Of a stretch of 64,000 bases of DNA, positions 60,400-62,936 are shown in pieces. Every line of letters starts with the position of its first letter. Within the stretch, counting starts at the first letter, position 1. Below the pieces are notes generated by a model, which did no database searches, was not told where the DNA came from, and was given only the letters and a program-made list of their open reading frames with translations. Source of the DNA: a virus. The position numbers were made by a program, and so were the translations under genes. The stretch is from IMG/VR virus record IMGVR_UViG_3300044472_000055, positions 1 to 64,000 of that record. One strand, given 5' to 3'.

Positions 60400-61878
60400 T
60401 TACGGTGTCACGGGGCAGCATTCGAGCTGCACACGAGCCACTACAGAGACGTTCGCGGTGGCAGCGTCCGCTCCCGTGGCGAATTGAATCTGAAGGCCGA
60501 GACCACCGGTCGGGTTCGCCGTGATCGTCCACTGTGCAACGGGCGTCGCATGACCGATGATTGACTGCGCACCAGACGCGATGAGAACCGTCGATCCCGC
60601 TGTCGTACGCACGATGAATTGACGCTGAATCGCAGCGCTGATCGCACCCGCTGCACCGCCACCGGCAACCGCCGTCACCGTGACGGTGTACGCGCGGTCA
60701 TCAACGAGGGCGATAGCGGTACTTCCACCACCATCACCAAAGTTGAGCGACGTCGCAGCGATCGGAGCGTTGGAAGGCCCGAGCTTCATGACGATCATGG
60801 TGCTCTGCGCATCACCGTCAGCGAGGAAGCGGCCAGACGCGTGAGCACGTTCGCCATCATTGGTGGCGCGTGCACGCACACCCGTGGCACTGGAGAAGCT
60901 CGCGCTCGCCGTGTTCGATCCGCCCTCGGCGTGGCTCGCGTAGCCGCTCGCGACCGTGCTGTCACCTTCGGCGTGCGAGCGCTGACCGCTTGCGAGTGTG
61001 CCAACGCCTTCAGCGTGCGCTCCCGTAGCAGTCGCCTGCGTGGTCTGCCCCTCCGCGTGAGATGCACTGCCCGACGCTGTCGTGCCGTTACCTTCGGCGT
61101 GCGCCGTTTGATTCGAGGCAGTCGTGCTCAGACCTTCGGCGTGCGCGTAGTTCGCGGTGGCCTGCGAGCTTTGGCCTTCGGCGTGCGAGTAGTCACCTTG
61201 TGCAACCGTGTTACGGCCTACGGCATGCGCAGCTGCTCCGCTTGCCTGTGCACCATCGCCAGTGGCGAACGCAGCACTGCCTGACGCCACGTTGTCGTAG
61301 CCGCCCGGAATCGACGCGCCGTCACCGGACGCCGTGTTGCCGTAGCCGCCCGCAACCGTCGCGTATTCGTCCGTCGCAGCGTTGTCATCGCCGCCGCCGA
61401 TGGTCGAGTAGTTCGCGGTGGCACCGGGCGCCGCACCGCCCGTATTGCTGCCGAGGTTAGTGATACCCGCCTGAGTGTTGTCGATGGGTGACTGATCCGA
61501 AGCACGATCGCTACGGATGTTGACCTTATCGGCTGCGACAGCGTCATCGAAGATGACAGCCGGATCACCGCCGCCGCTACCAGCGCTGCCAGTAGAGGCC
61601 GCGAAGGGCACCGGGCTCAGTGTGGCGCTCGTGCTACCGAGCGCACGTTCGACAGAATGCTCGCGCTTGACCCACACACGAATGGTTGCCTGCGCGCCGC
61701 TGTTGTTGGTCACACTGACATTCGTCGCGTCAGCTGTGATCCCGAATCCTGCGACGTCGCCCGCAAGATAGTCGGGTGTCGTCGCAGTACCGTTGATGTT
61801 GATGTCGTGGGCTTGCGCGACGGTTGCGCCATCTGCAACGTCCGTGAACGTGAGGATCTGAACCAGACGAGTTGCCAT
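60400..61878 (-). CDS. fibre/adhesin with YadA-like (Hep/Hag) SHAEG repeats
   Basis: 14-aa period (S/A)HAEG..T.A repeats and GGY.N.ASG repeats. Confidence 0.85.
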   Translation of the reverse strand: MATRLVQILTFTDVADGATVAQAHDININGTATTPDYLAGDVAGFGITADATNVSVTNNSGAQATIRVWVKREHSVERALGSTSATLSPVPFAASTGSAGSGGGDPAVIFDDAVAADKVNIRSDRASDQSPIDNTQAGITNLGSNTGGAAPGATANYSTIGGGDDNAATDEYATVAGGYGNTASGDGASIPGGYDNVASGSAAFATGDGAQASGAAAHAVGRNTVAQGDYSHAEGQSSQATANYAHAEGLSTTASNQTAHAEGNGTTASGSASHAEGQTTQATATGAHAEGVGTLASGQRSHAEGDSTVASGYASHAEGGSNTASASFSSATGVRARATNDGERAHASGRFLADGDAQSTMIVMKLGPSNAPIAATSLNFGDGGGSTAIALVDDRAYTVTVTAVAGGGAAGAISAAIQRQFIVRTTAGSTVLIASGAQSIIGHATPVAQWTITANPTGGLGLQIQFATGADAATANVSVVARVQLECCPVTP

Positions 61879-61920
61879 GTAGCAACTCTACTAGAATCGA
61901 TTGCACTGCATCTAACTTTG

Positions 61921-61993
61921 CGCGCGCTGTCGGATTCGAACCGACGACCCACGGATTATAAAGTCCGCAGCTCTACCGCTGAGCTAAACGCGC
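61921..61993 (-). tRNA. tRNA with 8-nt anticodon loop (CUUUAUAA); identity undetermined; no encoded CCA
   Basis: GCGCGTT/AGCGCGC acceptor, GCTC-AGCGGTA-GAGC D-arm, GCGGA/TCCGT anticodon stem, GTCGG-TTCGAAT-CCGAC T-arm. Confidence 0.85.
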
Positions 61994-61994
61994 A

Positions 61995-62064
61995 TGGTCT
62001 TGTGAAAGCCGGTAGTACTCGCTCCGTTGAACGCCTGCCGATGCGTCTGGCGCACTTTCACAAG
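61995..62064 (-). ncRNA. CCA-terminated tRNA-mimic RNA
   Basis: Perfect 10-bp CTTGTGAAAG/CTTTCACAAG stem followed by ACCA; two internal hairpins. Confidence 0.6.
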
Positions 62065-62065
62065 G

Positions 62066-62139
62066 TGCAGAAGGATGGGCTCGAACCACCGACCATCGTG
62101 CCTTTTGGGCCCGACGCTCTACCACTGAGCTACTTCTGC
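62066..62139 (-). tRNA. tRNA body with aberrant 19-nt anticodon arm; identity undetermined
   Basis: GCAGAAG/CTTCTGC acceptor, canonical D-arm, GGTGG-TTCGAGC-CCATC T-arm; arm TCGGGCCCAAAAGGCACGA lacks U33. Confidence 0.8.
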
Positions 62140-62140
62140 A

Positions 62141-62216
62141 TGGCGGCGCGGCTGGGTCGCGGGCTCCAGCTAAACGGCCTACGGGGATTCGCGATGATCT
62201 CCCCCACCGACGCGCC
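62141..62216 (-). ncRNA. 76-nt CCA-terminated tRNA-mimic RNA
   Basis: GGCGCG/CGCGCC plus GCCA; GCTGG/CCAGC stem at the T-arm position; one long arm replaces the D and anticodon arms. Confidence 0.6.
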
Positions 62217-62223
62217 ATAAGCG

Positions 62224-62514
62224 TTACTTCCGTCGGCCTGCGATCGGCAGGCTCGACAGCACCTTTCTGACCGCAGCACGGTCGGCAGTAGGCTTGGCAC
62301 CGATCGCGACGAGTTGATCCGTGAACGGACCCGCATCTTCGACGATCGGCACGTGTTGGATGCCGGCAGCTGCGAGAGCTTCGGCGTAGCGCTTCAGCGA
62401 GGCCTCATCGGGCACTGCGAGCACCACCATCACCACGGGCGCGTGGCCGACAGCCTCTTGAGCGGCGTGGCCTGTTTGCGCAAGTTGTGCCCCTTCGGGC
62501 AAGTCGCTACGCAC
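62224..62514 (-). CDS. pth2: peptidyl-tRNA hydrolase, Pth2 family (N-terminus may extend via a frameshift)
   Basis: (YVL)VRSDL..GAQLAQTGHA...VVLAVPDE..L...I.EDAG...LVAIG..P...LSSLP. Confidence 0.8.
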   Translation of the reverse strand: MRSDLPEGAQLAQTGHAAQEAVGHAPVVMVVLAVPDEASLKRYAEALAAAGIQHVPIVEDAGPFTDQLVAIGAKPTADRAAVRKVLSSLPIAGRRK

Positions 62515-62596
62515 GAGGACGTAGCAGGTTTCAGCGGGGGATTGCTGGGCGACGGGTGCTTCCCGTTCACCTTATCGAGCTGTGAAGCATGCATGG

Positions 62597-62625
62597 ATGA
62601 TGTGTCGGCTCTGCGAAGCTGTCAA
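62597..62625 (-). promoter_or_regulatory. sigma70-type promoter upstream of pth2 and the tRNA cluster
   Basis: TTGACA-N17-CATCAT on the minus strand. Confidence 0.5.
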
Positions 62626-62936
62626 GGGATTCAGCCGAAGGCGATCACTTCGAAGATCCACAGCGTCTTCCATGGGCGCCACTTGTTGATCGTGAGCTTG
62701 TCGTAGGCATCGCGATACACCCAGCATCGTGGACTATTCGCTGCTGAACAGTAGAGGTCGTCACGATCCATTACGGTGACCTTTCATGATGGGTTCGACG
62801 GCAACGACGAGCTGTCCTCGTCGATAATGAAACCAGCCGCGATCGTGGATCATCGCGTTGTTGATCAGTGCCTGTGGGGTCGCGTTGACTGCGAACAGAT
62901 ATAGACGTTCCTGTCGCTTTCGTTTCGACTCGTGCA

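Follow-up and report, generated by a model that had tools for sequence, protein, structure and literature searches.

How is a predicted peptidyl-tRNA hydrolase made from a viral gene that opens without a start codon, and what are the four tRNA-like RNAs that abut one another behind it? Both questions are raised by a locus near the end of the 64,000 nucleotides analysed here (the window), which are positions 1 to 64,000 of IMG/VR virus record IMGVR_UViG_3300044472_000055, that is, a 64-kb segment from the start of a virus record of 121,351 bases (61% G+C). Reading the minus strand from 62625 to 61921, the locus consists of a promoter, a leader, the gene pth2 and four abutting RNA units, here called A to D; this order was first described in a first-pass annotation made from the sequence alone, and every coordinate was verified. 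From comparison of leaders and tRNA loops among related loci, we consider it likely that the last unit, tRNA D, is a natural quadruplet decoder that gates Pth2 synthesis through a +1 shift in the leader.

Results

A pth2 frame without an upstream start codon

The gene concerned is the following.

62224..62571, minus strand: pth2 coding frame after the shift, 115 codons plus TAA; Pfam, profile and AlphaFold/Foldseek

Its product scored above the threshold of the Pfam family PTH2 (PF01981; 25.3 bits against a cut-off of 23, E 1.9e-5), and a precomputed match to the same family was present for eight of 15 Pth2 homologues. The profile of these 15 homologues matched PDB entry 24bt_A, a peptidyl-tRNA hydrolase, with an E value of 4.9e-4. 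When the AlphaFold model (pLDDT 83, pTM 0.74) was submitted to Foldseek, all 12 matches at E <= 0.001 were members of the Pth2 family (1q7s, 2zv3, 3erj, 1wn2, 1xty, 1rlk), with TM scores of 0.60-0.69. Residues H35, A36, E39, D55 and E78, among others, are invariant in the homologue alignment, and the enzyme presumably hydrolyses peptidyl-tRNA. No relatives of the gene were found in a prophage and host search of 185,579 species genomes.

The pth2 frame ends with TAA at 62226-62224 and opens straight after another TAA at 62574-62572. Between this upstream stop and GTG 62514, the first canonical start in the frame, there is no ATG, GTG or TTG. In the AlphaFold model beta-strand 1 comprises residues 14-21 (ETCYVLVR), and GTG 62514 is residue 20; initiation there would therefore remove most of a core strand, six of its eight residues. 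The residues ahead of GTG 62514 are conserved among homologues, and three of the four natural variants found in this segment, which come from contigs of other sequencing runs, are synonymous in the pth2 frame.

It could nevertheless be supposed that Pth2 starts at GTG 62514, or at a non-canonical codon, that units B and D are decayed tRNAs and A and C spacers, and that any complementarity between leader and tRNA loop is due to chance. A GTG is indeed available, and gene callers start many homologues at the equivalent methionine or valine. The truncation of strand 1 argues against such a start, as does the equivalent codon in many relatives, which is GTC or ATC and hence no start codon.

A four-base site in the leader matches the loop of tRNA D

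Ahead of pth2, and one base out of its frame, lies a short ORF from which a +1 shift enters pth2. The site of the presumed shift and the tRNA that matches it are located as follows.

62567..62590, minus strand: leader ORF of seven codons, peptide MLHSSIR then TGA, with its ATG at 62590
62572..62575, minus strand: quadruplet AUAA, the rare codon AUA plus A, complementary to nucleotides 3-6 of the D loop
61921..61993, minus strand: unit D, tRNA with the 8-nt loop CUUUAUAA; Rfam and ARAGORN
61958..61961, minus strand: four-base anticodon UUAU of tRNA D, with CU before it and AA after it

Only two sense-codon sites, AUAA and AGGU, could lead into the open pth2 frame. The last three bases of AUAA are the very TAA that closes the pth2 frame upstream, and taking ATAA as a single step yields an uninterrupted product of 121 amino acids. 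AUAA is also the exact reverse complement of UUAU, nucleotides 3-6 of the 8-nt loop of unit D. As the first-pass annotation had it, D combines a canonical tRNA body with this enlarged loop: Rfam and ARAGORN agree, the Rfam tRNA model (RF00005) giving 62.6 bits against a gathering score of 29, and the loop CUUUAUAA occupies 61963-61956. Its layout, CU-UUAU-AA, is that of an expanded loop in which a four-base anticodon is framed by U33 and a 3' purine.

In a rough gene set of the window genome only one sense codon is rarer than ATA (27 of 31,416 codons). Three of the 27 ATA codons form an in-frame ATA-A, which is too few to show avoidance. Across the 121-kb genome no other AUAA site has a short ATG-led leader and a start-less, coding-like +1 ORF; the pth2 leader is the sole such site, and tRNA D thus looks dedicated to pth2. 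Neither the leader nor the N-terminal extension in the window contains an RGPP/RAPP arrest-peptide motif.

Contigs from other public DNA runs cover both elements, unit D without differences in X1 record 1 and X4 record 16, and the leader in X3 record 15 (0 differences) and X1 record 3. No listed difference falls in the D loop or in the leader, so the odd loops are real sequence and assembly error is ruled out; the best-matching of these contigs may stem from the sample of origin. With two possible sites and two tRNAs, a match within the window by itself would arise by chance about once in 60 cases, a figure that leaves some room for the coincidence supposed above.

Loop and leader change together in related loci

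The closest relative is a complete 137.9-kb viral contig (L001). Its Pth2 shares 75% identity with that of the window, its promoter is spaced identically, and its leader, MLSSSM, is similar. Its shift site reads AGUA, and its 8-nt-loop tRNA carries the matching UACU. Throughout the L001 genome no AGUA site besides the pth2 leader has an equivalent layout.

Using an alignment of the 15 homologues, we added 36 viral and 30 metagenomic loci, most of which have odd-looped tRNAs beside pth2. A match was scored when nucleotides 3-6 of a tRNA loop were complementary to a leader codon plus the next base. The 68 sequences were reduced to 55 non-identical ones (13 were identical to others over the last 250 nt of pth2), then to 51 with the anchor motif (four lacked it), and finally to 40 that had both a leader candidate and an ARAGORN tRNA; besides L045, the loci lost at this last step (11 in all) were L026, with its fused N-terminal domain, L008, with its ordinary ATG, and others that ran into a contig end or whose tRNA ARAGORN missed.

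A codon-anticodon quadruplet match was present in 34 of the 40 testable loci. Shuffling the tRNA sets among loci gave a mean of 6.5 matches and a maximum of 15 (10,000 shuffles), and with random 4-mers the mean was 2.3 and the maximum 10. In the two other registers, one or two bases off, matches fell to 1/40 and 0/40. The matched sites comprise 14 distinct quadruplets (AUAA, AGUA, CAUC, CAUU, GAAU, GAGC, CCAA, CUAC, CCAC, CUAA, CCGU, GCUU, GUAU and CCAU), and two extra pairs were recognised by eye, GAUU/AAUC in L061 and AUGC/GCAU in L037. A hairpin search further recovered matching loops in L014, L018, L033 and L063, all missed by ARAGORN. In the matched relatives the 4-mer usually has U before it and A after it, and the loops are mostly of 7-9 nt once mismatched closing pairs are opened (6 to 10 nt overall). 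Co-change with Watson-Crick pairing at four positions is comparative evidence that four bases are read.

A cultured example is Myxococcus phage Mx1: its leader carries CAUU, and a downstream tRNA with a 9-nt loop carries AAUG. The GenBank coding sequence of Mx1 pth2 is too short, beginning after the conserved RRDLP motif. Entry by a frameshift in the leader would account for the truncated pth2 genes that gene callers predict here, the Mx1 record being one instance.

These comparisons bear directly on the decay of B and D considered above. The match recurs with different sequences, far above the shuffled expectation, and the abnormal loops are conserved and identical in independent runs. The first-pass annotation had reasoned that normal loops in relatives would point to decay; the relatives' loops are abnormal too, which rules out decay as their origin. 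Unit A, as described below, folds no better than shuffled sequence, in keeping with a spacer, and we judge the account as a whole, with its start at GTG 62514 and its chance pairing, to be very improbable.

Four-base complementarity alone does not locate the pairing, and the loop might instead bind the leader mRNA outside the decoding site, by T-box-like or antisense sensing that alters initiation or structure, with the frame change achieved otherwise. T-box leaders read tRNA anticodons, so there is a precedent. RNA-RNA sensing of this kind does not account for the 4-mer lying always at a codon boundary of the ATG-led leader and in the pth2 register (34, 1 and 0 of 40 in the three registers), or for a loop with the decoder layout U-NNNN-A. 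No T-box or other cis-regulatory Rfam family matched the minus strand of 61700-62700 at E values up to 10, and we hold this explanation to be very unlikely.

The leaders themselves are 2-9 codons long and, in all but one of the 34 matched loci, end within five codons. The 0-frame shift codon ends in U or A in 30/34, and a stop follows it directly in 16/34, often as UGA-C and then GAC. Such a layout could in principle favour slippage without any part for tRNA D: in the window, two successive rare codons ahead of UGA, AUA-AGG, would make ribosomes pause, and a +1 slip of the P-site tRNA would follow. The rarity of ATA in the window genome is in line with such a pause, as is the frequent stop at the next 0-frame codon of relatives, many of them in the prfB-like UGA-C form. 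The P-site tRNA would have to re-pair in the +1 frame, which the sites generally do not allow, and the co-varying tRNA loops would go unexplained; slippage of this sort seems extremely unlikely to us.

Proposed mechanism of Pth2 gating

62597..62625, minus strand: sigma-70-like promoter, TTGACA, 17-nt spacer, CATCAT; 10 of 12 consensus positions

The TTGACA box begins at 62625 and CATCAT ends at 62597, and this is the single promoter-like site within 61700-62800, where shuffled sequences gave a mean of 0.2. The leader ATG is the seventh base past the -10 hexamer, from which it follows that the mRNA is probably leaderless or nearly so. Among matched related loci, 23 of 33 have a TTGAC box 34-40 nt ahead of the leader ATG, a spacing that likewise fits leaderless or near-leaderless mRNAs. 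The best explanation of the locus is a self-contained operon made up of promoter, seven-codon leader, pth2 and a processed RNA array.

We postulate that translation begins at the leader ATG (62590) of a probably leaderless mRNA, and that at the sixth codon tRNA D would pair with AUAA via all four bases of UUAU. The ribosome would then go on one base further along, in the pth2 frame, and would produce a 121-residue enzyme of Pth2 fold that includes the first beta-strand. Were AUA read by a host tRNA instead, translation would stop two codons later at UGA. In effect the gate would weigh how much functional tRNA D is available against how fast a very rare codon is decoded in the ordinary way; and since D has to be excised from the end of the very transcript that encodes Pth2, Pth2 output would depend on transcript and tRNA alike. 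tRNA D is predicted to be charged and to decode on the ribosome, and the gate may act as a feed-forward or, as with prfB, a homeostatic control. Many relatives have a prfB-like layout, which together with the mini-ORF leaders suggests a homeostat that would sense slow decoding or termination; a simple feed-forward delay is equally possible.

A number of observations weigh against this mechanism. tRNA D has no encoded CCA, and no public RNA run is listed as containing the stretch. Six of the 40 testable loci were unmatched in the automated test: L004 has an ordinary ATG, the tRNA of L014 was overlooked by ARAGORN and found by the hairpin search, the contigs of L039, L049 and L062 end too soon, and the leader of L061 lies beyond the 150-nt limit of the script. 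L004 and L008 both lack a leader and have an ordinary in-frame ATG for pth2 instead, but they have kept tRNAs with GAUG or AAUG loops; these tRNAs may accordingly have other targets or be relics. In L045 the leader reads ATG ATC TGA, and both TGA and TAG stand in the path. Of 33 matched loci, 28 have no canonical start from the quadruplet to strand 1, and in the other five a GTG, TTG or ATG could act as an internal start. Classical suppressor studies point mostly to three-base pairing, so that true four-base pairing is something we infer from co-variation.

Three loci have further irregularities in their reading frames. At about 2440-2470 of L045, an AUCU shift, for which an AGAU tRNA is present, still leaves a TAG where L047 has AAG; the locus could be a pseudogene or could involve a suppressor or another code. 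In L037 and L067 the conserved GESSPG...VLAVPD sequence stays in frame only if another +1 shift takes place inside pth2 itself, at a C run (CCC plus T) that precedes TGG TGA. No tRNA with AGGG was seen there, and the second shift is either a homopolymer sequencing error or a second recoding site.

Units A, B and C

The three units between pth2 and tRNA D are as follows.

62141..62216, minus strand: unit A, 76 nt, 6-bp terminal stem, GCCA tail, then T, then tRNA B
62064..62139, minus strand: unit B, tRNA-like with a 19-nt anticodon arm, body 62066-62139; Rfam 53.6 bits, ARAGORN
61995..62064, minus strand: unit C, 70 nt, 11-bp terminal stem, two inner hairpins, ACCA tail, then T, then tRNA D

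The first-pass annotation was right that no unit has a normal anticodon arm, B having the 19-nt arm, D the 8-nt loop, and A and C no cloverleaf, and that the non-cloverleaf units encode CCA while the cloverleafs do not: A ends in GCCA and C in ACCA, B is followed by CC, not CCA, and D has none. Its description of A as 76 nt with an acceptor-like stem, GCCA and no cloverleaf agrees with ours, the terminal stem being of 6 bp; for C the ACCA tail was correctly given, and the stem, put at 10 bp, proved to be of 11.

In unit B, 13 nt of the anticodon arm stand where the Rfam model has 11. The arm can be drawn with 7 bp, one G.A mismatch and a 5-nt loop, or with 6 bp and CCAAAAG, and ARAGORN forces a 6-bp stem with a G.A mismatch upon it. 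Relatives of B share its D and T arms, but where an anticodon loop would be they show C-GCAA-G, C-GAAA-G or UCAAAAG, and the anticodon arm is hypervariable in the family. Since tetraloop-like ends replace the anticodon loop, the unit B family probably does not decode. More widely among the loci, tRNA bodies without an anticodon, closed by a GNRA or UUCG tetraloop (C-GCAA-G, C-GAAA-G, C-UUCG-G), are recurrent; anticodon-less bodies were seen in L003, L004, L008, L013, L019, L021, L028, L055 and L064, and as unit B of the window.

Unit A received no tRNA call from ARAGORN and no Rfam match even at E values up to 10, and its fold was no better than that of shuffled sequence (z 0.05, 93/200 shuffles as good). 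Unit C folds more stably than most of its shuffles (z -2.25, 3/200 as good) and gave no Rfam tRNA match even at E values up to 10. The first-pass annotation had staked its reading of A and C on their conservation, and this was not found: blastn-short and nhmmer searches of 67 related loci and the whole genome, a set that does not include three closer relatives known from short assemblies (P0001-P0003), returned self-matches only, and unit C is absent from the closest relative, L001. In the place of unit C, four loci (L004, L039, L041 and L046) have a conserved hairpin of about 60 nt (outer stem GUGAU/AUCAC, inner stem UUCACGC/GCGUGAA), which is dissimilar to C and sits between a B-type tRNA and the first GAUG tRNA.

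Directly behind pth2 in the CAUC clade lies an RNA of 61-65 nt, R1, with a 13-bp terminal stem, an inner 5-bp hairpin and a GCCA tail; nine sequences show compensatory changes in 6/18 of its pairs. The covariance model of R1 matched neither unit A of the window nor the L001 element at E values up to 10, and the two-sequence consensus fold of unit A and the L001 element had 8 pairs and nothing usable. What unit A shares with the L001 element and the R1 family is only its position and the GCCA-T end.

The spacers at the A-B and C-D junctions are of 1 nt (T), and an NCCA-U-tRNA junction recurs among the loci, an arrangement that would fit release by tRNA-processing enzymes. Units A, B and C are probably co-transcribed and processed RNAs. 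The first-pass annotation cast the cloverleafs as mere processing signals that release A and C; that role is too narrow for D, which appears to be a functional part itself. An antisense role of the units was also considered. Their longest complements to the leader and pth2 mRNA are of 7 nt (A), 6 nt (B), 10 nt (C) and 8 nt (D), and only that of C is uncommon: an inner loop of unit C (61995-62064) is a perfect 10-nt complement to the 3' end of pth2 at 62243-62252, equalled in 10/500 shuffles, uncorrected for four tests. No claim of an antisense role is made.

The anomalies of the four units can also be read as those of a tRNA-mimic or decoy cassette, in which the RNAs would mislead anticodon nucleases or tRNA-end-modifying toxins, Pth2 would recycle damaged tRNAs, and the odd loops would be escape or decoy variants. 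All four units lack a normal anticodon arm, B relatives have stable tetraloops, so that some units cannot decode, and A and C end in encoded CCA, all of which such a cassette would accommodate; evasion of nucleases by altered phage tRNA loops has moreover been proposed, in a paper whose available text does not mention hydrolases, suppressors or frameshifts in this connection (PMC10264068). What a decoy does not predict is complementarity to the leader, in register, in 34/40 loci and with 14 different sequences. It also leaves the absent start codon of pth2 and the tracking of leader by loop unexplained, no defence gene or target was identified, and A and C are not conserved, and we regard it as improbable. 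The first-pass annotation had offered anti-defence or translation-rewiring as alternatives: the latter stands for unit D, whose anticodon matches the pth2 entry site and co-varies with it, and the former drew support from no test.

The gating proposed for tRNA D could be extended to the whole array. Four-base pairing would compete with slow decoding of a rare codon or stop codon, and a shortage of free tRNA or of termination capacity would raise Pth2 output. Peptidyl-tRNA recycling would in this way be under prfB-like feedback, with A, C, R1 and B as acceptor-arm mimics that bind or tune Pth2. We consider this joint reading of a four-base-code homeostat doubtful.

Discussion

Relation to known recoding systems

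tRNA D resembles +1 frameshift-suppressor tRNAs (sufD, sufJ, sufA6/SufB2) and engineered quadruplet tRNAs in having an extra loop nucleotide and a U before and a purine after the four-base anticodon. The likeness would extend to complementarity with a four-base codon and a +1 change of frame (PMC4238358, PMC8481270, PMC9094753, PMC5009743). Those tRNAs arose as laboratory mutants or were designed, and they serve to repair mutations or to insert new amino acids, whereas here a wild-type conserved gene is concerned; and unlike them tRNA D has a dedicated target in its own operon, with which it co-evolves. The 2016 recoding review judges most suppressor tRNAs to pair with three bases at a time and natural quadruplet pairing to be exceptional and doubtful (PMC5009743).

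The locus also has features of prfB, the gene of release factor 2, in that a short upstream frame and a +1 shift precede a translation factor and a slow 0-frame event competes. The prfB shift site has a UGA-C context. Cis signals and slippage of an ordinary tRNA serve prfB; the present locus would use a dedicated trans-acting tRNA and four-base pairing. The window does not have the prfB-type stop right after the shift codon, AGG being next and the stop one codon later. As a single tRNA acting as a translational switch through a very rare codon, tRNA D is comparable to bldA, the tRNA-Leu(UAA) of Streptomyces (PMC10732093). The bldA tRNA reads an in-frame triplet in many targets, whereas tRNA D would read a four-base codon with a change of frame, and a single target was found in each of the two genomes scanned.

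Phage stop-codon suppressor tRNAs are alike in that a phage tRNA without a host counterpart reads through a block in phage genes; they read an in-frame triplet, and tRNA D would read four bases. Phage XacN1 has CUA tRNAs whose targets are given as not known in the accessible text of PMC5852040. XacN1 was set aside as a pth2 example, its weak tblastn match lying inside a larger unrelated ORF, and so was Stenotrophomonas phage CM1, where the ORF is long and ordinary and no tRNA lies within 3.3 kb.

In the cluster C mycobacteriophages Cane17 (L076 1440-2185), HyRo (L078) and ScoobyDoobyDoo (L077), ATG-TAG or GTG-TAG stands directly before the annotated GTG of pth, in frame. A TTGACA box lies ahead of the gene and a tRNA(CUA) just behind it, unannotated in HyRo. 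According to the available text of PMC5966550, in which gating is not mentioned, a PTH2-like gene occurs in about 96% of cluster C tRNA arrays. Possibly the same gate exists at the cluster C pth in an in-frame, amber-suppressor form. The case is ambiguous, as ordinary initiation could be served by the SD-like GAAGG or AGGGG located 7 nt ahead of the GTG.

Two phage systems share other parts of the arrangement. The lambda bar minigenes are very short ORFs that end in a rare codon before the stop and that poison Pth-deficient hosts through tRNA sequestration. The mini-ORF and the link to peptidyl-tRNA hydrolase are common to both cases; unlike the bar minigenes, the mini-ORF here fronts a phage pth2 and would be escaped by frameshifting. 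The T4 stable RNAs species 1 and 2 are non-tRNA RNAs within a phage tRNA cluster. Like them, A and C abut tRNAs, so that tRNA processing would free them; A and C are tRNA-sized with an encoded NCCA end, and the likeness to species 1 and 2 is one of arrangement alone.

In the literature searched, which did not extend to the supplementary tRNA tables of PMC5852040 and PMC5966550, where such tRNAs might be listed, we met no account of a gene gated by a natural quadruplet tRNA of a phage. What is new is the joint variation of a wild-type tRNA with its four-base codon over at least 14 sequences, each of the four positions keeping its Watson-Crick pair. The question of three- versus four-base pairing thereby becomes directly testable, in the cultured phage Mx1 and possibly in cluster C mycobacteriophages. 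If tRNA D and its counterparts act as proposed, they would reveal a new strategy, in which a phage keeps a private tRNA to gate a single gene, and they could serve as natural scaffolds for code-expansion work.

Neighbouring genes

Right after tRNA D, on the minus strand at 60400-61878, lies a gene for a 492-aa protein with repeated HAEG motifs. It has a weak match to YadA-head repeats (E 0.0096, below the cut-off) and is probably a fibre or adhesin. In phage Mx1 (L075 93-1742) a gene for a TROVE-domain (Ro60-like) protein precedes the tRNA and pth module by about 0.8 kb. Y RNAs, the ligands of Ro proteins, have tRNA-like parts; the window's single YrlA match is noise (E 9). In L055 (3160-3504) and L056, ARAGORN predicts a tmRNA gene with the tag ANDNAVPFIAEKIAA, on the opposite strand just past the pth2 and tRNA module. 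Outside the window, on the minus strand of the same record (G000:C1:101534-101892), there are two further matches to the tRNA model, one of them of merely 63 nt.

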